Shown: positions 39,787-58,063 of the stretch, piece by piece
Position numbering within the stretch: the first letter of the stretch is position 1
Layout of the letters: each line of letters opens with the position of its first letter
NCBI GenBank assembly: GCA_011364925.1
Contig: RDOA01000013.1
Coordinates: 16,205 to 80,204, forward strand
Length of the DNA: 64,000 bases
From: Promethearchaeota archaeon
GTDB taxonomy: Archaea > Asgardarchaeota > Lokiarchaeia > Sigyniarchaeales > SOKP01
Direction: 5' to 3'
Position numbers and translations under genes: made by a program
The notes under the pieces: model-generated
Told to the model about the DNA's origin: nothing
Databases searched by the model: none
What the model saw: only the letters and a program-made list of their open reading frames with translations

Positions 39787-39965
39787 TAATATTACCTTTA
39801 TCGATTTTATTCTTATAATAAATTATATATAGATCAGTATTGCTTTCATCATTTTTAACAATTATTTTCTAAAAATTTTCTTCAGAAGAATGACTTCTGA
39901 GAAGAATAGAATTTAAAAAGAAGTTGAATAGATGAAATATGTTTTTGAATGTAATAATCAATAAC

Positions 39966-40076
39966 CTATTTCATACTTTCTTCGCAACAAAACTTAAGAT
40001 ACTGAAGTTCGTGTGAATTGAACTTTGATCGTGCTTTTAAAGCTTTAAATTCTGATTTTTCCATAAGATTTGCCAT
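39966..40076 (-). CDS. Putative small protein (36 aa)
   Basis: MANLMEKSEFKALKARSKFNSHELQYLKFCCEESMK with GGAGG at 40077-40081; below the ORF-track cutoff. Confidence 0.3.
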   Translation of the reverse strand: MANLMEKSEFKALKARSKFNSHELQYLKFCCEESMK

Positions 40077-40394
40077 CCTCCATTTATTTTTTTTTCATAT
40101 TTCTTTGTCCTTAATTAAATTAGGAGTAGAATACATATTTAGTTATCAAAACTAAACTAATAATGAACTCTTAAACAATTAGTAAAGTAAATTAAAAACA
40201 ACCAAAATTGTTAGTAATTCAGAAAAATAGAAAGAAAAAAAAAATAACCAGAAGAGGAATTCATTTTTTCATTTTTGCTCAAACTTCTTAAATAGAAGCT
40301 CCTTCTTTCCGCAACAGTTCAAAAAGCTCCTCTTTTAAGCTCAGAAATGATGGAATGTTCCAAGATGCTATTTCTGGGTAAAAGGAAATAAAAT

Positions 40395-46467: not shown

Positions 46468-46560
46468 AGTAGGCGTTTCGAATTTGGGAAGGAGATTTCG
46501 AATAGTTTAATAATAGGATTAGAAGACTAAATCTTCAAAATTAAAAATGCAAAAATTTCT

Positions 46561-46722
46561 TTATTTTTGAAGTTCTCTTTTCTTTAAGCGTAAATCTTTA
46601 GATCTGCATCTACGACATTTTTTTGCTCTTAAGGGATTTAAAGCTCCGCATTTGCGACACACCGTTTTCATTAATAAGTGATGTCGCGCTATTTTTCTTT
46701 TATAAGGGTCATCGATCGGCAT
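46561..46722 (-). CDS. rpl40e: 50S ribosomal protein L40e
   Basis: Not in ORF track; [53 protein letters not shown]. Confidence 0.95.
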
Positions 46723-46963
46723 CTGATATTCACATTTATCTACTGATTTTTCTGTTCAATTTAATAATTTTTTAACTGTTATTCTTTTTGAAACTATTAT
46801 ACTAAGCTTTTAATTTAGTTTCATTTAAAGAATAAATTGAAAAACATTGGAAAGCTAAAAAATTTTATGATATGATTACAGACTATAAAGAAATAAAGTA
46901 AAAATTAAAATTTTATAAATAATTTTAAGCTATAAGTTAGAGTCAAATTAATAACAAATTTAG

Positions 46964-47167
46964 TTGAAAAAGTTGCCAAGCGAGATATTTAACGAGGAAA
47001 AGTTTTTAGAATTAGCAAAGACTGCTGTCCATTGTCGGGTTAAACGAGTAAAAGATGTTGTGAAGTTGAAACTAAGGACCAAAAATCAGCTTTATACATA
47101 TAAGACGGATCCTGAGACTGCTGATCGACTTGTAAGAAATCTTACATGTGATATTTTAGAGATATAA
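46964..47167 (+). CDS. rpl38e: Ribosomal protein L38e
   Basis: PSEI....FLE.A....RVKR....VKLKLRTKNQLYT. Confidence 0.85.
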   Translation: MKKLPSEIFNEEKFLELAKTAVHCRVKRVKDVVKLKLRTKNQLYTYKTDPETADRLVRNLTCDILEI

Positions 47168-47183
47168 GTGGAAAAGAAGCTAA

Positions 47184-49526: not shown

Positions 49527-51074
49527 CTAATCTATATGTATCTCATATTTTTGAATTGTTTCAATTCCAAGTATATTGTGAACTTTTACTGCAATAATAT
49601 GGTCTCCAATTTCGTTATAGGTATACCTTATCGAGGTTAAATTCAATTCACGATTTTTTAGAGTTCGAAAAGCTATCCAACTCGTAGAAAAATAATCTTG
49701 TTGACATTTAAAATCTATTGCCCAACTATCTATCCAATCAACGAACGATTCTACCTTTGCTTTAAGACTATCGTTAATAAATTTGAGATAAGGCATTGAA
49801 TATCCAATCAATTCAATAGTAACATTGTTGTTGTCTATATTCACCTTAATTTCAAACGAAGTTTGTTTAGATAAAGTATTTTGTGTTAAAGTCTGTTCGT
49901 TTTCAACTATATAGCTTTTGTGTATTTCAGAATCCTTTTGAGAATTGTCGATCTTTAAAATTTTAAATGGATTGGGAATTTGTTGATACTTTTGATCCCA
50001 ATCCAATAAGTTGTTACTGTTCCAAACATCTAGAATTCTTTTACGACATATTTCAATTGAATTTGGTTCTATATCTGTTCCTATCCATCTACGTCCGAGT
50101 TTCTCAGCCACAACTAAACTTGTACCAGTTCCACAAAAGAAATCTGCCACGATGTCGTTTTTATTCGATGATGCGAGGATTATCCGTTTCAATAGTCTTT
50201 CTGGCTTTTGTGTTGAAAATGCTTGATATTCAAGTGTGTTTGCCCTGATATAAGGCAAATCCGTCCAAACATCGCGAGGAAAAATACCATTTTTTGAAAC
50301 ATATACTTTTTGGGAAAGTTTCTTCCCATTATGACTTCCTCCCCTATAATAGAAAGTTCCCTTCTCGTCTTTTTTAAGAGCAAATTTCACTCTGTTAGAG
50401 TACTCCATGTAAATGTTAGGATTGTCGTTGAATGTATAGTCCGTAGATTTCGTATAGAATAAAATCGTATCAAAAGAGCGGATAAAAAACTTCCTTGTTT
50501 TAGCTGAAGCAGCAGGATAAGCCCATATTATTTCATTTTTAAAATTCTCTTTACCGAAAATTTCATCCAATACTATTTTTATGTAATGGGAAACATGCCA
50601 ATCTAAATGTACATAAATACTTCCATTTTCAGCAAGTAATTCCCTCATTAAAACTAGTCTTATATATAAAAAACTTATATATTCATCAATTCCTCCATCC
50701 CATGAATCTGAATAAGCTTTAGAGTTCTCAAACGCGTCAGTCTCTCCTATAAATGTTTTGGATTGAAAATCACTCCCCGTAGCAAAAGGTGGATCGATAT
50801 AGATTAAATTGATTTTTTTTTCAAATTTTTTCAAAAGAGATATCATGATCTCTTTGTTGTCTCCTTGGATTAAGTTATTTTCCCAAGTTTTTGAGGGTAT
50901 TTTAACCCTTTGATGATCTTCAATCGCCTTTTTCATTTTTTCATTTTCCAATCCAATGTTGTCTATAATTGGATATCGATTCAATTCCAAAGTAATACAA
51001 GGATAAATGGGGGGAGATTCGTTATCATAGGGTCTTACTGATCTATTTTTGTCTTTCCAATAAAGTTCCGGCAT
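49527..51074 (-). CDS. Site-specific DNA methyltransferase (N6A/N4C, beta class)
   Basis: IYIDPPF precedes TQKPERLL..II and DFFCGTGTS; probable ATG at 51074. Confidence 0.92.
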   Translation of the reverse strand: MPELYWKDKNRSVRPYDNESPPIYPCITLELNRYPIIDNIGLENEKMKKAIEDHQRVKIPSKTWENNLIQGDNKEIMISLLKKFEKKINLIYIDPPFATGSDFQSKTFIGETDAFENSKAYSDSWDGGIDEYISFLYIRLVLMRELLAENGSIYVHLDWHVSHYIKIVLDEIFGKENFKNEIIWAYPAASAKTRKFFIRSFDTILFYTKSTDYTFNDNPNIYMEYSNRVKFALKKDEKGTFYYRGGSHNGKKLSQKVYVSKNGIFPRDVWTDLPYIRANTLEYQAFSTQKPERLLKRIILASSNKNDIVADFFCGTGTSLVVAEKLGRRWIGTDIEPNSIEICRKRILDVWNSNNLLDWDQKYQQIPNPFKILKIDNSQKDSEIHKSYIVENEQTLTQNTLSKQTSFEIKVNIDNNNVTIELIGYSMPYLKFINDSLKAKVESFVDWIDSWAIDFKCQQDYFSTSWIAFRTLKNRELNLTSIRYTYNEIGDHIIAVKVHNILGIETIQKYEIHID

Positions 51075-51163
51075 TATTAATCGCCTATAAGATGGCAAAA
51101 GATTTATTCTTAATTTCCTTCACAAATTTAATTTAAGAAAAATTATGAGATTAGAAGGTTAGT

Positions 51164-52517: not shown

Positions 52518-53441
52518 ATGTCAAATGAATGGTTTGATTCTTATATAAAAGCCGGCAAAGCAGTTATAGCCGCTAAGAAGTTAGCTGAAAAACTCGTAAG
52601 GCCAGGAACCTCATTTCTAGAAATTGCGAAAAGCTGCGAAGAAGAAATCATAAATCAAGGATGTGAGTTATCATTTCCAATAAACATGTCGTTAAACGAG
52701 CTTGCAGCTCATTATAGCCCTCCTATTGATGATCCTACAATAGTTCCAAATAAGGGATTATTAAAGATTGATCTAGGTTCTCATCACAATGGGTATATTG
52801 CGGATTCAGCAATCACTTTTAACTTAGATAAAGATCCAAAGTTACAGAATTATATTGTCGCTGCCCAAGAAGCACTCGATGCCGCAATTGAATTATTTAA
52901 ACCAGGAATTAAGCTGTATGAAATAGGTGAAGTAATTGCAAATAAAATTCATAACCATGGATTAAGACCAATAAGAAATCTTGGAGGTCATGAATTGAAA
53001 CAATACAATCTGCATGCTGGACCGTTCGTTCCTAATGTGAAAGATTTAAGTCATAGAGAAGTTTTGAAACCTGGAGATGCCTACGCCTGTGAGCCTTTTT
53101 CGACATCAGGGGAAGGATTAGTCACTAATGGTAAACATTCTTACATTTACCGATTTGTTAGACATATAAAAAAGAATATGCCTTACGAAGAGATAAGCTA
53201 TATGAAGAAAATTGAGGAATTAACCAAAAATCTACCTTTTTCTCCTCGATTATTAGAAAAACACGATATCATCCCCAAAAACAAAATTCAACGGATAATA
53301 GAGACCTTTAAACGGAAAAGAATCTTAGATGATTATCCCGTACTAGTAGAAGTCACTGGAGCCCCAGTTGCACAACAAGAACATACAATTATACTTGATT
53401 TGGATGGAACTCCATTTGTCACAACACGAATTAAGAATTAA
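52518..53441 (+). CDS. map: Methionine aminopeptidase type II
   Basis: AAHYSP, KIDLGSH.NGYIADSA, NLGGH, EPF, AQQEHT. Confidence 0.96.
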   Translation: MSNEWFDSYIKAGKAVIAAKKLAEKLVRPGTSFLEIAKSCEEEIINQGCELSFPINMSLNELAAHYSPPIDDPTIVPNKGLLKIDLGSHHNGYIADSAITFNLDKDPKLQNYIVAAQEALDAAIELFKPGIKLYEIGEVIANKIHNHGLRPIRNLGGHELKQYNLHAGPFVPNVKDLSHREVLKPGDAYACEPFSTSGEGLVTNGKHSYIYRFVRHIKKNMPYEEISYMKKIEELTKNLPFSPRLLEKHDIIPKNKIQRIIETFKRKRILDDYPVLVEVTGAPVAQQEHTIILDLDGTPFVTTRIKN

Positions 53442-54285
53442 GGAAAAAATCACAAGTATCATTTTATGTGCTGGTAAAGGAACGCGCGCCAAAGAGATTG
53501 CGCAAAGTATTCCAAAACCACTTGTTAAAATTAAATCTTTAGGTAATCAATCTATCCTCTCTTTAATGATTCAATCACTAAAGTATTTGAAATTGGATCA
53601 AATTGTGGTTGTAACGGGACATTTAGGTAATAAAATAGCGGATTTTGTAAACTCGCAACGATTTAAGAGTCGTTTTAATGAAGAAAGTATTACAATTCAT
53701 AGTTCAGGGGAAATGTACAAATTAGGGCCCTTATATTCTCTGCTAAGTATAACAAAAAGTCCTCAAATTTTTAAAGATGACCGATTTTTTATGATTTTAC
53801 CAGGAGACACTATATTCGATACCGAGCTTTTGCAAGAAATTCTCGATTTTATATTATTGAACCATTCAGTTTTAATCCAGAATTCAATTATTTTTTATAG
53901 AGAGTTTAGACCTAATATTTTATCAAAAGAGTTTGAAAAATATTATGTTAATTACGGAAAAATTATTTCCTATATAAAAGTGAGAGAAAAGAACGCAAAA
54001 GCAGTTGTTAAAGAAATATCTCAAGATAATTTGAAATCTCTTTACAATCAGCGCATTGTTTATCAAATTATTCCAGTCTTCATATTTAACAATGCACATA
54101 TAAATATAATTAAGGATCTCGCAAAAGAGGTCAATGTTCGTTCCATACGAGAAGTGGTTAATCTATTGATTAAGAAAAAAGAGCAATTTCTTGCTATACC
54201 AGTAAACCCTAATTATAACTTTTATGACATTGATTCTAATTTAGATTTAAAAATCCTAAATGATAAAAAAAAAGGTGGACAATAG
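53368..54285 (+). CDS. Sugar-phosphate nucleotidyltransferase family protein
   Basis: ILCAGKGTR, PKPL, GD, DID..LD; true start probably near 53437 (ATT) after map. Confidence 0.8.
   Translation: MHNKNIQLYLIWMELHLSQHELRIKEKITSIILCAGKGTRAKEIAQSIPKPLVKIKSLGNQSILSLMIQSLKYLKLDQIVVVTGHLGNKIADFVNSQRFKSRFNEESITIHSSGEMYKLGPLYSLLSITKSPQIFKDDRFFMILPGDTIFDTELLQEILDFILLNHSVLIQNSIIFYREFRPNILSKEFEKYYVNYGKIISYIKVREKNAKAVVKEISQDNLKSLYNQRIVYQIIPVFIFNNAHINIIKDLAKEVNVRSIREVVNLLIKKKEQFLAIPVNPNYNFYDIDSNLDLKILNDKKKGGQ
54265..54273 (-). terminator. U9 terminator of candidate ncRNA
   Basis: Nine T on the minus strand 2 nt after the terminal helix. Confidence 0.6.
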
Positions 54286-54761
54286 CAGCTCCGATTATCT
54301 CAGAAAACATGTTTCAATGGAAATCAACTCTTACTCCCATGAATCGTATCTGGATCAAAGCGCTATTGAAGAAGCTTATAATTTTATTTTAAAGACATGT
54401 AAAGTTTGAATGTCTCGTGTAGCAAAAAAACTGCTAAATTCAACAAGAACTCATGTAAAATTGTTTCAATTTACACCATCATTCATGTCAATTTAAACTT
54501 AATTGTATTTCTTCATAAAATTAATGCTTCAATGCGATAAATATTAGAAATCTCCTAAAGTAATACTAATTTTACAGTAAATAAGGATTCAGTACTATTT
54601 GATCGTAATTATATCAAACCGTGGAAATCAAGGTGTTAAGATTAACTCTGGTAAAAAAAAACGCTCCAGACTTTATGAATCATTTATCAATTTTGGAACA
54701 ACAAAGTCGTTATCTAAATTGTAATGCTGTATCATAAACCAATGATTTAAACTATTGTCCA
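54274..54761 (-). ncRNA. Candidate large (~490 nt) structured non-coding RNA, family unassigned
   Basis: No ORF >=60 aa; 11-bp terminal helix (54751-54761 with 54276-54286); nested helices 54665-71/54348-54, 54527-36/54361-71, 54515-22/54380-87, 54484-89/54394-99; hairpins; G-U pairs favour the minus strand. Confidence 0.75.
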
Positions 54762-54783
54762 ATTAGACATATACATAATCATC

Positions 54784-54801
54784 TATTTAAATTTATTTAT
54801 T
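54784..54801 (-). promoter_or_regulatory. TATA box with A-rich upstream element for candidate ncRNA
   Basis: TTTAAATA at 54791-54784, i.e. -31 to -24 from the 5' G at 54760. Confidence 0.55.
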
Positions 54802-54897
54802 AATTCTTGAAATATATTCACTAAATTAATAGGAGAAAGTTTAATACATTCCAATATTATTTACCAAAACGAAGTGTAAATAAGAAGTAATAATTAA

Positions 54898-55281
54898 GTG
54901 AAAATGTCAATAGATATAGAGATAGAACTCTTCGGAATAGGAACTCTTAAAGGTGAATTATCAAGAGTGTATGCCCCCCTATCCACAGATGCTATCGTTA
55001 ATAAACTTCCTATTGTATTACGAGGACGATTCAGTTTTGGTTCAAAAGCTTATTGGACGCTCCCTGGGATTGAAATCTATAAAGGGCATAACCCAAAATC
55101 AGTGAAAAATGTCGAAAAAGGAGAAATTATTTATAATCCTAAAACTGAAGAATTGCTCATAATACTACAAGATGGTGAAATGCCTAATAAAGTAAATAAA
55201 ATTGGAAGAGTCACTGACAACTTACAACTCCTTCTAAACGCTAAAAATGGCTTAAATACTAAAATAAATAGAATGAAGTAA
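54898..55281 (+). CDS. Cyclophilin-like fold protein
   Basis: L.R..AP.S..AI...LP, V.KGEI.Y.P, VNKIGRV pattern. Confidence 0.6.
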   Translation: MKMSIDIEIELFGIGTLKGELSRVYAPLSTDAIVNKLPIVLRGRFSFGSKAYWTLPGIEIYKGHNPKSVKNVEKGEIIYNPKTEELLIILQDGEMPNKVNKIGRVTDNLQLLLNAKNGLNTKINRMK

Positions 55282-55308: not shown

Positions 55309-56124
55309 ATGGCGATTTCTAATAAGTTAACCATTGTTTTTACTTTTTTTTACTTAGGTGTTATGATTTACTTGATTTTATTTTTTACAGTTCCACCATT
55401 TCAAGATGCCATAATTCAATCAAGACATGATATATCAGGACTTACTGAAGGCTCTAACTACTTCATTGTGCTTTTAATAGCTTTTTTTATATGCCTTATA
55501 GGAAATGCAAGTGTAGGCTTTCCGATACCATACCCTTTCGTAATATTTTCTTTTTCTAACTCAATATTTACCCGCTACATAAATATGGGATTAAATTTTG
55601 GGGAAACTTTAATGAGTGGTCCATTCTGGTTAGAAATTTTAATACTAGCTGTTGTGGGAGGCCTTGGAAGCGCTGCAGGTGAACTTGTAGGATACTTAAT
55701 AGGAATAGGGGCTAAAAAAGTCCCTAAAATATCTCAATCAAAAACATTTGACAATGTCCAAGGATTTGGAAGACTTGTCTTAGATTACCCAAAATCTCTG
55801 CATTTTTTTATTTTCCTTGCCGCAGCTTTACCTATACCGGATGATCCTTTATGGATCGCGTTAGGAATGTCGAAGAAAAAAATTCACTTACCTATTTGTT
55901 TTATTTGGGCTTGGTTGGGGAAAAATGTGACCACTATCTTTTACGTTATCATTCCTATTTTGATATCGCTTGGATTTGGCTTTACCGGTATAGAATTTGA
56001 TGATTTTTCAAGTGTTATTACTGAGGCTTTTATGCTTTTGCTAACTTTAGCTGTTATGCAATTTATTTTATCATTCAACTGGGAAAAATATCTAAATAAC
56101 AGAAGAGCGAAAAGGAAAGCTTAA
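55309..56124 (+). CDS. DedA/VTT-like membrane protein
   Basis: GLGSAAGELVGYLIG, F.AAALPIPDD...I.LG, WLGK. Confidence 0.75.
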   Translation: MAISNKLTIVFTFFYLGVMIYLILFFTVPPFQDAIIQSRHDISGLTEGSNYFIVLLIAFFICLIGNASVGFPIPYPFVIFSFSNSIFTRYINMGLNFGETLMSGPFWLEILILAVVGGLGSAAGELVGYLIGIGAKKVPKISQSKTFDNVQGFGRLVLDYPKSLHFFIFLAAALPIPDDPLWIALGMSKKKIHLPICFIWAWLGKNVTTIFYVIIPILISLGFGFTGIEFDDFSSVITEAFMLLLTLAVMQFILSFNWEKYLNNRRAKRKA

Positions 56125-56305: not shown

Positions 56306-56632
56306 CTATATTTGTGATTTGGAGATTGTTATCTCGATTTTCGAAATTAAATCCTTCTTGTTTCTTTGAGATCGATTATCTTTTTTATTATAATTTTTAC
56401 GTGGATTTCTTTCGAAATATGGGCGGCTACCTAGTGATATATTAGCAATTTCTACACCAGGGTAGAGACGATTTTTTAAAATTTCAGCAACCTCAACAGC
56501 GGTGGAAATCTCTTCTCCTTCCCCCGTTATTAATAATGATTTTGTCCCTGCTGAAAAGGCAAAAATTGCATCTTTTATTGTTTTTTCCCGATCAGCACGA
56601 TTTTTAACTTTAAGGGTAGTATCGTTAGGCAC
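56306..56632 (-). CDS. Alba-family nucleic-acid-binding protein (divergent)
   Basis: G..ISTAVEVAEILKNR...V.I..I.LGS...ISKIEITI pattern of Alba. Confidence 0.75.
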   Translation of the reverse strand: MPNDTTLKVKNRADREKTIKDAIFAFSAGTKSLLITGEGEEISTAVEVAEILKNRLYPGVEIANISLGSRPYFERNPRKNYNKKDNRSQRNKKDLISKIEITISKSQI

Positions 56633-56809: not shown

Positions 56810-58063
56810 TTATAAGTTAAATTCAGAACGAGCATTTAGATCATCAAGTACTTTTTGATATTCAGAACTCCTACCTTCGAAATGTTCAATAATTTTTCTT
56901 TCATCCGTGTCTAAATAATCGTATAATGGAGATATAATTTCTATTCTTTTCGTAAAATCCTTTATAATTTTCTTATAGAAATCATTAGGTTTTTGAAGCA
57001 TCTCCTTAATTTTCTTACTAAATTTCTCCTTCTTTTTCTTATAATTGGCTGCTTGATCCGTTTTCTTTATCTCAATTAGAATATCCTCATACTTCTTTAA
57101 TTCTTTTTCTATTTTTTCTCTAAATTTGGGAATACGGTAAATTTTTTTATCAATATCAGGATCCCATTCATATAAAAAATAATCGTCTTCTTCCGCTTCT
57201 TCTTCATCTGCTGTGATTTTAATGTCTCTTTTTAAAACCATAATTAGTCCGAAGTTTCTTTGAAGTTGTGCTAATGCTTTTTTACGCAAAATCTCATCGA
57301 TATATTCGATTTGCTTTAAAGTGTGTTTAATAGATTTATTAATCTCTTTAACATCTTTTTCGACCTTCTGAACCATTTCTTCTTTCGTAAATTCACATTT
57401 TAATTTAATTGCATTCGAATAAGTAGCGAACATGCCTCGATCGGGGTTATTCAATCTTATTCCCGCAACTCCAAGATAATTTCTCTTTGATCCTTTCTGA
57501 CAATGGTCAAATACTAATGCTATAGCGTAGGGATTTACACCTTGATAAAAAAGTTGAGTTTCGATGTCTCTTGGAGAAAATATAAAGCCAATACCGGGGT
57601 GAGTGTGCCACCATCCTACAAAGAAGTCCTCTTTATTATCTTGGATTGCTCTCTCATATATTGCAGTATTAAATTCAGCAGTGTCAACATAATGTTTACT
57701 TTTATACTCAACATAAGCCCTTCCTCCTACCATTACGGGGATTGCGTCCTTGATAATCACATCCTTATTATCTTTTATAGATCCTATCAGGATACCATAG
57801 ACTTCTCGCCAATTTCGTTGAGGTAAATCATCATTTCCATATCTCATTGCATACCCAACAATTCGCCTGTAGGCATTATATGATATAAAGACAGGAGTTT
57901 TGGTAGGGTCAATTCCATACTTCTGAATGTATCGTTCTTTAGTTGAAAATTCAACGAAATCATCTGAATCTGATGCTTTCGCATTCAAAACCGTATTTTC
58001 TTTACTAGGGTTTTCAAAATTGTTATTTTCCGCTTCGGCGCCATAACTCTCTTTTTTAGTCAT
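56810..58063 (-). CDS. JAB1/MPN+ (JAMM) metalloprotease with coiled-coil C-terminus
   Basis: REVYGILIG and VGWWHTHPGIGFIFSPRD (E-HxH-S-D). Confidence 0.85.
   Translation of the reverse strand: MTKKESYGAEAENNNFENPSKENTVLNAKASDSDDFVEFSTKERYIQKYGIDPTKTPVFISYNAYRRIVGYAMRYGNDDLPQRNWREVYGILIGSIKDNKDVIIKDAIPVMVGGRAYVEYKSKHYVDTAEFNTAIYERAIQDNKEDFFVGWWHTHPGIGFIFSPRDIETQLFYQGVNPYAIALVFDHCQKGSKRNYLGVAGIRLNNPDRGMFATYSNAIKLKCEFTKEEMVQKVEKDVKEINKSIKHTLKQIEYIDEILRKKALAQLQRNFGLIMVLKRDIKITADEEEAEEDDYFLYEWDPDIDKKIYRIPKFREKIEKELKKYEDILIEIKKTDQAANYKKKKEKFSKKIKEMLQKPNDFYKKIIKDFTKRIEIISPLYDYLDTDERKIIEHFEGRSSEYQKVLDDLNARSEFNL

Follow-up and report, generated by a model that had tools for sequence, protein, structure and literature searches.

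A structured non-coding RNA gene in one Lokiarchaeia family, possibly a ribonucleoprotein scaffold

Gene neighbourhood and transcription unit

The DNA analysed here (64,000 nucleotides, the window) contains on its minus strand a predicted RNA of 488 nt and 29% GC, at 54274–54761, whose ends are inferred from TATA spacing, a terminal helix (P1), and a U tract. In the direction of transcription, the unit consists of an A-rich, BRE-like stretch (54792–54801), the TATA box TTTAAATA (54791–54784), 22 nt, the 11-pair P1, CC, and a U9 terminator tract (54265–54273) directly after the RNA 3′ end. All strings listed in a preliminary description of this DNA, the U9 included, were found in place when checked on the sequence; only the spacing of the TATA box has to be corrected by one base, to −30 to −23 from the first U of P1 instead of −31 to −24. 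The same description called this stretch the largest ORF-free gap, which is true at a 60-aa cut-off (54286–54897, 612 nt; the next is 608 nt) but not at 100 aa, where it comes second. The other AT-rich, ORF-free gap of 608 nt (39787–40394) gave no Rfam match at the gathering threshold, and a further apparent gap is mostly filled by small ORFs at about 46550–46710 (minus strand) and 46950–47170 (plus strand), which, judged by eye, resemble ribosomal proteins L40e and L38e.

A sugar nucleotidyltransferase-like gene (53368–54285, plus strand; PF12804/PF00483) converges on the RNA and adjoins it in 111/111 loci with enough flank. The end of this ORF (stop codon 54283–54285) overlaps the last 12 nt of the RNA and the U tract, and the 3′ arm of P1 shares DNA with its last four codons. 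The divergent cyclophilin-like gene (54898–55281, plus strand; PF04126 below cut-off) adjoins the RNA in all 99 loci with enough flank. In g21, the locus is rearranged so that the RNA stays with map and the cyclophilin-like gene has moved away, and g22 has kept the RNA at a locus that lacks the nucleotidyltransferase gene. Farther along lie genes for a 271-aa membrane protein (55309–56124, plus strand), for which Pfam and NCBIfam gave nothing at the thresholds used and which looks DedA/VTT-like by eye, for a second Alba paralogue (56306–56632, minus strand; PF01918), 1.5 kb from the RNA, and for a 417-aa protein with a JAB/MPN domain and a long, charged C-terminal region (56810–58063, minus strand). 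An N6/N4 DNA methylase gene (49527–51098, minus strand) sits between truD-like and aspS-like genes in an otherwise conserved translation cluster. The place of the RNA after map and the nucleotidyltransferase gene is taken in the sister family by a 54-aa ORF with two CxxC motifs (L203:5478–5642, G050; similar in L213 and L214), for which tblastn gave no match in the present genome. Tandem 19-nt repeats extend across an assembly gap right after the nucleotidyltransferase gene at about 5060–5370 of L213 (G053).

Considered singly, the sequence is only moderately unusual. Its folding z-score is −1.91 for the minus and −0.89 for the plus strand, and a 10-bp inverted repeat alone was found in 16% of shuffles. 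The case for an RNA rests on comparison with relatives, and the significance of P1 on its position and covariation, not on repeat length alone. The early preference for the minus strand is borne out by the better folding and by conserved U.G pairs, which fit one strand. The 10-mer repeat, which had been pointed out as a feature, is at chance level: 38.5% of dinucleotide shuffles contain such a repeat (8% if three or more G/C are required).

The arrangement of promoter and terminator is conserved. A TTTAWATA-type box stands at near-fixed spacing from the start of P1 in homologues of all 13 genera, and the arrangement is one-sided, with a box beyond the other P1 arm in just 2/93 homologues. The TATA-like word on the plus strand at 54246–54253 is unconserved (2/93). 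At least seven U residues occur within 12 nt after P1 in 92 of the 93 homologues.

Distribution and evidence for an RNA

The homologue set comprises 100 sequences of 345–790 nt (median about 486) from all 13 genera of one Lokiarchaeia family, which we take to be GTDB SOKP01 (Loki-3). The element is single-copy in this genome. BLAST matches were obtained in 34 of the 36 same-genus genomes, and a covariance model of the 3′ 216 nt matched 87/126 family genomes from five genera, with one copy as a rule. Diverged copies in the model-negative genera were reached via the flanking genes and lie at the same place. Between distant genera the RNA interiors are unalignable, and the ends stay fixed. Searches outside the family gave 0/24 genomes of other families for the 3′ model, 0/265 for the promoter-motif pattern, and weak matches only (up to 22.8 bits) for the 5′ model, 0/8 examined having the partner helix; likewise, no such unit was seen in 16 syntenic loci of other families. 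Because of its fast divergence, the RNA should be regarded as not found outside the family, rather than absent. The possible new Asgard class that had been proposed is in keeping with the lack of an Rfam match but narrower than its name, since the RNA was found in one Lokiarchaeia family and not across Asgard. A pattern scan of GTDB genomes returned 56 records, nearly all of them titled as Promethearchaeota, other Asgard or uncultured archaeal MAGs, and one with the accession prefix SOKP01; 60 metagenome contigs and no viral contigs matched the element.

Some records deserve mention in their own right. The longest version (790 nt; L169:672–1461, G003) comes from the same genus and has an interior unrecognised by the 3′ model, and the shortest regular ones (359–364 nt) are those of g21 (L202, L351, L355, L356), with an invariant internal stretch of their own. 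Two copies in G013 (contigs C117 and C57), each beside a cyclophilin-like gene and one with an internal TGA, probably represent two strains in a bin that is 9% contaminated. Record L250 (DATKTW010000163.1) bears the title ‘Candidatus Nanopelagicaceae bacterium’ but contains the complete Loki locus (map 73% and cyclophilin-like protein 73% identical) and is mislabelled or misbinned.

Several lines of evidence speak for an RNA gene. Folding z-scores, calculated with 12 shuffles per homologue, were negative in 23/23 homologues, with a mean of −3.1 compared to −2.0 for the opposite strand. Between close pairs, 112 of 136 indels have lengths not divisible by three, and the homologues have no ORF in common. 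Expression is suggested by two mangrove metatranscriptomes of one study, which contain contigs 100% identical to 54426–54738 and 54371–54642; these libraries are unstranded and without end or level information, and a DNA origin is possible in principle. The contigs cover 54371–54738 only, and the other 5.6 kb compared had none; as contigs show presence and not absence, the empty flanks were not counted toward relative abundance. As a whole, the RNA diverges about as fast as the adjoining coding DNA, and its ends diverge more slowly. Covariation within the molecule is modest, the score for a 36-sequence alignment being equalled in 44 of 500 shuffles, and many helix pairs never vary among the homologues.

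The one-sided TATA box and U tract at fixed spacing, the covarying P1, the non-coding indels, the single copy, the synteny, the RNA-library contigs, and the null result with Rfam together support an independently transcribed large non-coding RNA of an uncatalogued family. The unit is almost certainly a stand-alone structured RNA gene on the minus strand, single-copy and family-wide, with its own TATA promoter, oligo-U terminator, and a selected end helix. The preliminary description had reached this reading from one sequence, and the conserved spacing, covariation, and synteny now sustain it. None of the outcomes named there as telling against it was observed: Rfam gave no match, 100 homologues from 13 genera conserve the element with covariation in P1, all 23 homologues folded better than their shuffles, and the element occurs in one copy with no target-site duplication. 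A large archaeal non-coding RNA family thus appears real and apparently undescribed, as no description was found in the literature on Asgard and Lokiarchaeia non-coding RNAs, with subscription journals mostly outside the scope of the search.

Terminal helix, hexamer, and internal helices

Only the promoter, P1, a near-invariant CAWUGG hexamer, and the U tract are kept family-wide. P1 joins 54751–54761 (5′ arm) to 54276–54286 (3′ arm), with 99.4% of cells paired. This is the terminal 11-bp inverted repeat reported earlier, and in this genome it has 10 Watson–Crick pairs and one U.G pair. Double-sided changes, arising in different genera, are found at five of the nine core pairs (1, 2, 4, 6, and 9). 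Pair 4 changes from C-G to U-A, G-C or A-U, and pair 6 from A-U to U-A or G-C; U.G variants also occur among the homologues.

The motif NCAWUGG (54739–54745) follows P1 after 2–13 nt, and CAWUGG is present in 98/100 homologues. In most lineages, the hexamer forms part of a small hairpin (G-C, C.A, A-U, U-A, U-R) with a loop of 5–7 nt starting with GG, and a 3-bp stem of this hairpin was found in 70/93 homologues, compared to 43 in controls. For g18 and g22, it is instead predicted to pair with the 3′ region in a helix of 10–11 pairs nested in P1 (probability 0.5–1.0). Complementarity between the hexamer and the 3′ region exceeds that of interior controls in 11 of 13 genera and is strong only in g18, g22, g25, and g29. 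The preservation of the same sequence in two structural contexts points to sequence-specific recognition. A pseudoknot of the hexamer with a YYRR word before the U tract was also considered and discarded, being indistinguishable from a background of 56%.

The interior is far less constant. Near the 5′ end, a hairpin at 54647–54670 with a 5-bp stem and a U-rich loop (U9) is 80–83% paired in close relatives, and a tract of at least six U residues occurs 59–152 nt (about 95) from the 5′ end in 81/93 homologues. A long-range helix between 54665–54671 and 54348–54354, proposed in the preliminary description, is not supported. It crosses and overlaps the best-conserved 3′ hairpin, and its 5′ strand is better paired locally with 54647–54651, both in 15 relatives (83% vs. 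74%) and genus-wide (68% vs. 58%). The three other long-range helices proposed there fared better, as they form one central stem in close kin (54515–54536 with 54371–54399; whole domain 54371–54536), although genus-wide the pairing of these helices falls to 37–56% and that of the stem to 37–59%. This lineage-specific stem has 15 pairs, 92% paired, in an alifold of six close homologues, and is 68–95% paired, partly in a shifted register, in the five closest relatives. Of the two apical hairpins that it carries, the one at 54454–54475, with a GAAA-containing loop, comes from the sequence and the minimum free energy structure and is weakly kept in relatives. The other, at 54411–54448, has a non-canonical GA/UAC internal loop followed by a conserved GACA and is 85.6% paired in 36 homologues of five genera. 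Its internal loop may be loop-E-like or K-turn-like. A K-turn, the target of L7Ae, has tandem G.A/A.G pairs next to a bulge of 3 nt, and in place of the second GA that this requires, the present genome has GC; both tandem GA are present in 19/87 homologues, counted with a strict pattern that misses some, and GC, AA, and AG variants are common. An H/ACA sRNA was rejected here, as the conserved ACA does follow one hairpin but lies about 8 nt from the GA motif, which leaves no room for a pocket; in H/ACA sRNAs, the hairpin has a pocket and a K-turn or K-loop, and 14–16 nt separate pocket and ACA.

A long 3′ hairpin (54288–54361) is stacked on P1. Its base helix of eight pairs with tandem U.G pairs (54361–54354 with 54295–54288) is 97–98% paired in homologues, and the hairpin, 89–95% paired and with one- and two-sided changes, is not predicted in g18, g20, and g26. 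This hairpin, the GA/UAC hairpin with GACA, and a helix with a 4 × 3 internal loop are common to a five-genus clade; the last shows double-sided changes in 31 sequences and is degenerate in this genome. Family-wide covariation is restricted to P1, and that of internal helices is clade-limited.

Possible functions and comparison with known RNAs

What the RNA does can be approached from its design. The explanation that fits best, with a probability of roughly 0.5, is a stable structured RNA that serves as the scaffold of a ribonucleoprotein particle, as the tiny invariant core, the freely varying arms, and the family-wide single copy are what would be predicted for a scaffold read by protein at the junction of P1 and the hexamer. 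P1 and the adjacent CAWUGG, together with the helix that stacks on P1 or nests within it, would form the site read by a protein partner, and the interior arms, varying freely in length and sequence, may act as flexible spacers or secondary binding sites. Yeast telomerase RNA and the variable parts of RNase P RNA likewise have freely varying arms.

The neighbouring Alba paralogue is a speculative candidate for the partner. It was found in 124/134 family genomes, covering all 13 genera, and with this query not in 19 genomes from the order's other families; the canonical Alba is encoded separately, on contig C38, and two other-family genomes tested have a single canonical Alba. The last β-hairpin of the second Alba is lengthened by about 14 mostly basic or Asn residues (Arg/Lys/Asn-rich). 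In eukaryotes, the P3 domain of RNase P RNA is a binding site for the Alba-family proteins Rpp20/Rpp25 (Pop7/Pop6; PMC3001073), which makes an Alba paralogue with a distribution matching that of the RNA a plausible partner. However, this match counts as a single co-occurrence event, and the adjacent membrane-protein gene shows a comparable restriction, having close orthologues in this family only and weak paralogue-level matches elsewhere, so the pairing is put forward tentatively. It is doubtful that the RNA is the core of an undescribed, essential archaeal RNP machine, with a dedicated Alba paralogue on a large flexible scaffold; if true, this would be an independent archaeal parallel to the eukaryotic Alba-containing RNase P, MRP, and telomerase particles.

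Among the alternatives, the one that survives best, unlikely as it is, assumes a trans-acting guide or antisense RNA, in which CAWUGG pairs with a conserved target (the tRNA 3′ NCCA, rRNA or mRNA) and is carried by the remainder of the molecule. The sequence UGGN is complementary to NCCA, and T-box antiterminators pair with the tRNA 3′ NCCA end. The near-invariance of the hexamer and the exposure of its GG in a hairpin loop in most lineages are as expected for a guide. Nevertheless, no CCAAUG occurs in one family member's 23S rRNA (full length) or 16S rRNA (5′ half), one 16S site pairs only with the AUUGGUUU part and not with the invariant C, and the structures predicted for g18 and g22 bury the hexamer in an intramolecular helix.

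It is still less likely that the RNA forms an RNA-only multimer or cage. ROOL/GOLLD-type bacterial RNAs assemble without protein (10.1101/2024.12.08.627333), and the present RNA resembles them in size class and number of hairpins. Those RNAs, however, are named for extensive covariation-supported structures, whereas here the interior is unconserved across genera, and no conserved kissing-loop pair was found among the homologues.

Descent from a known RNA by duplication, giving a degenerate copy with an altered role, either of RNase P RNA (as an MRP-like paralogue) or of SRP RNA, is improbable, and as a functional member of either class such a duplicate is largely refuted. The element is end-paired, of similar size and located in a cluster of translation and tRNA genes, its long central stem, capped by two hairpins, is reminiscent of the SRP S domain, and the nearby Alba recalls Rpp20/Rpp25 (PMC3001073). 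Paired 5′ and 3′ ends are, however, unspecific to RNase P/MRP, and the defining motifs are missing. The CR-I motif of RNase P (GAGGAAAGUC-like, P4 strand) was found in 4/93 homologues in sense and three in antisense orientation, and not in this genome, and CR-V in the last 45 nt in 0/93; a control RNase P RNA matched both. The SRP54-binding motif of SRP helix 8 was found in 0/93 homologues and in three of six control SRP RNAs, and profile comparison with the RNase P RNA of this genome and with relatives' SRP RNAs gave no match. These pattern searches agree with the absence of RNase P, SRP, and tRNA/tmRNA motifs noted previously. Rfam 15 gave no match for the interval at E up to 10, nothing for this element in the whole window, and for 19 diverse homologues five scattered matches (E 0.3–6.3) far below thresholds. 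The expectation that both RNAs would be encoded elsewhere proved right for RNase P RNA (contig C27, 131.5 bits), whereas SRP RNA was found only in relatives' contigs: in 28 of 36 same-genus genomes at loci other than the element, and on other contigs of G013 and G014, the element being 85% identical in such relatives. An SRP RNA reading of the element was rejected on these two grounds, the helix-8 result and the other loci. This assembly, despite 100% marker completeness, yielded no SRP RNA or 23S rRNA and a partial 16S, which look like assembly gaps.

Other classes found no better match. ARAGORN detected no tRNA or tmRNA in 93 homologues, the T-arm pattern was present in 0/93, and the 3′ ends vary; box C of C/D sRNAs occurs in 1/93; and Ro60, the partner of Y RNAs (TROVE, PF05731), was not found in this 100%-complete genome. 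Possible likenesses to the ACAGAGA box of U6, group II domain V, the tRNA D-loop, and the yeast MRP 3′ end gained no support from the homologues.

Also improbable is a role in cis, as an antisense or termination device of the convergent nucleotidyltransferase/map operon. It would account for the overlap of the 3′ ends and for the RNA staying with map and the nucleotidyltransferase gene in rearranged loci, but the short overlap leaves a folded RNA of 350–790 nt, the 5′ hexamer, and the P1 covariation unexplained, and in g22 the RNA persists without the nucleotidyltransferase gene.

A DNA element with incidental transcription, such as a replication origin with ORB-like boxes or a set of transcription-factor sites, is very unlikely. 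The stretch is AT-rich, single-copy, and intergenic, with inverted repeats, and both CAnTGG and the interval 54313–54327 resemble the palindromic ORB core. ORBs often flank an AT-rich unwinding element in inverted orientation, and a G-string is their signature (PMC7776575). No G-string occurs here, none of the three cdc6/orc1 genes lies on this contig, and the one-sided promoter and U tract and the conserved U.G pairs fit an RNA from one strand. An ORB-like string is located instead upstream of a cdc6/orc1 gene on contig C101 (G000), near the gene start, in about 340 nt of AT-rich intergenic DNA, and that stretch is a candidate replication origin. Finally, a MITE or the remnant of a mobile element or retron, to which a terminal inverted repeat of 10–13 bp might be attributed, has a negligible chance in view of one copy in the genome, a locus fixed across 13 genera, no target-site duplication, no reverse transcriptase found, and no viral-contig match, and an active mobile element is refuted.

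Whether or not the scaffold reading is correct, the novelty lies in the RNA family itself and not in a mechanism. To our knowledge, no large stand-alone RNAs other than rRNA, RNase P RNA, and SRP RNA are common in archaea. A further RNA of such size, kept as a single copy across an Asgard family of 134 species, would imply that a hitherto unrecognised process dependent on RNA operates in the archaeal group that gave rise to eukaryotes, and it bears on the question of whether fast-evolving scaffold RNAs predate eukaryotes. The reach is limited to one family, apparently not the one holding the cultured Lokiarchaeia.

Among known systems, the large bacterial RNAs OLE (RF01071), ROOL, GOLLD, and the raiA motif are alike in being structured stand-alone genes of several hundred nucleotides, here at a fixed locus; the biochemical function of such orphan RNAs is poorly understood (10.1101/2024.12.08.627333). 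In contrast to these RNAs, the element is archaeal, without an Rfam match, and poorly conserved in its interior across genera, with no conserved ornate core. RNase P RNA (RF00373) and MRP RNA (RF00030) share with it P1, a similar size, a TATA promoter, and a U terminator, and the Alba-fold neighbour parallels Rpp20/Rpp25, but the element lacks CR-I, CR-V, and the P4 pseudoknot signature. Archaeal SRP RNA (RF01857) is also end-paired, and in this genome's subgroup the long stem leads to two hairpins, one with a GAAA loop; the element, however, is 40–60% longer and without the helix-8 motif. No sequence relation connects it to yeast telomerase RNA or 7SK, a tandem repeat of the complement of the hexamer motif was not found, and reverse transcriptase (PF00078) was not found in this 100%-complete genome. 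The resemblance to these two RNAs is one of design only: paired ends, short conserved motifs, and fast-evolving arms of variable length.
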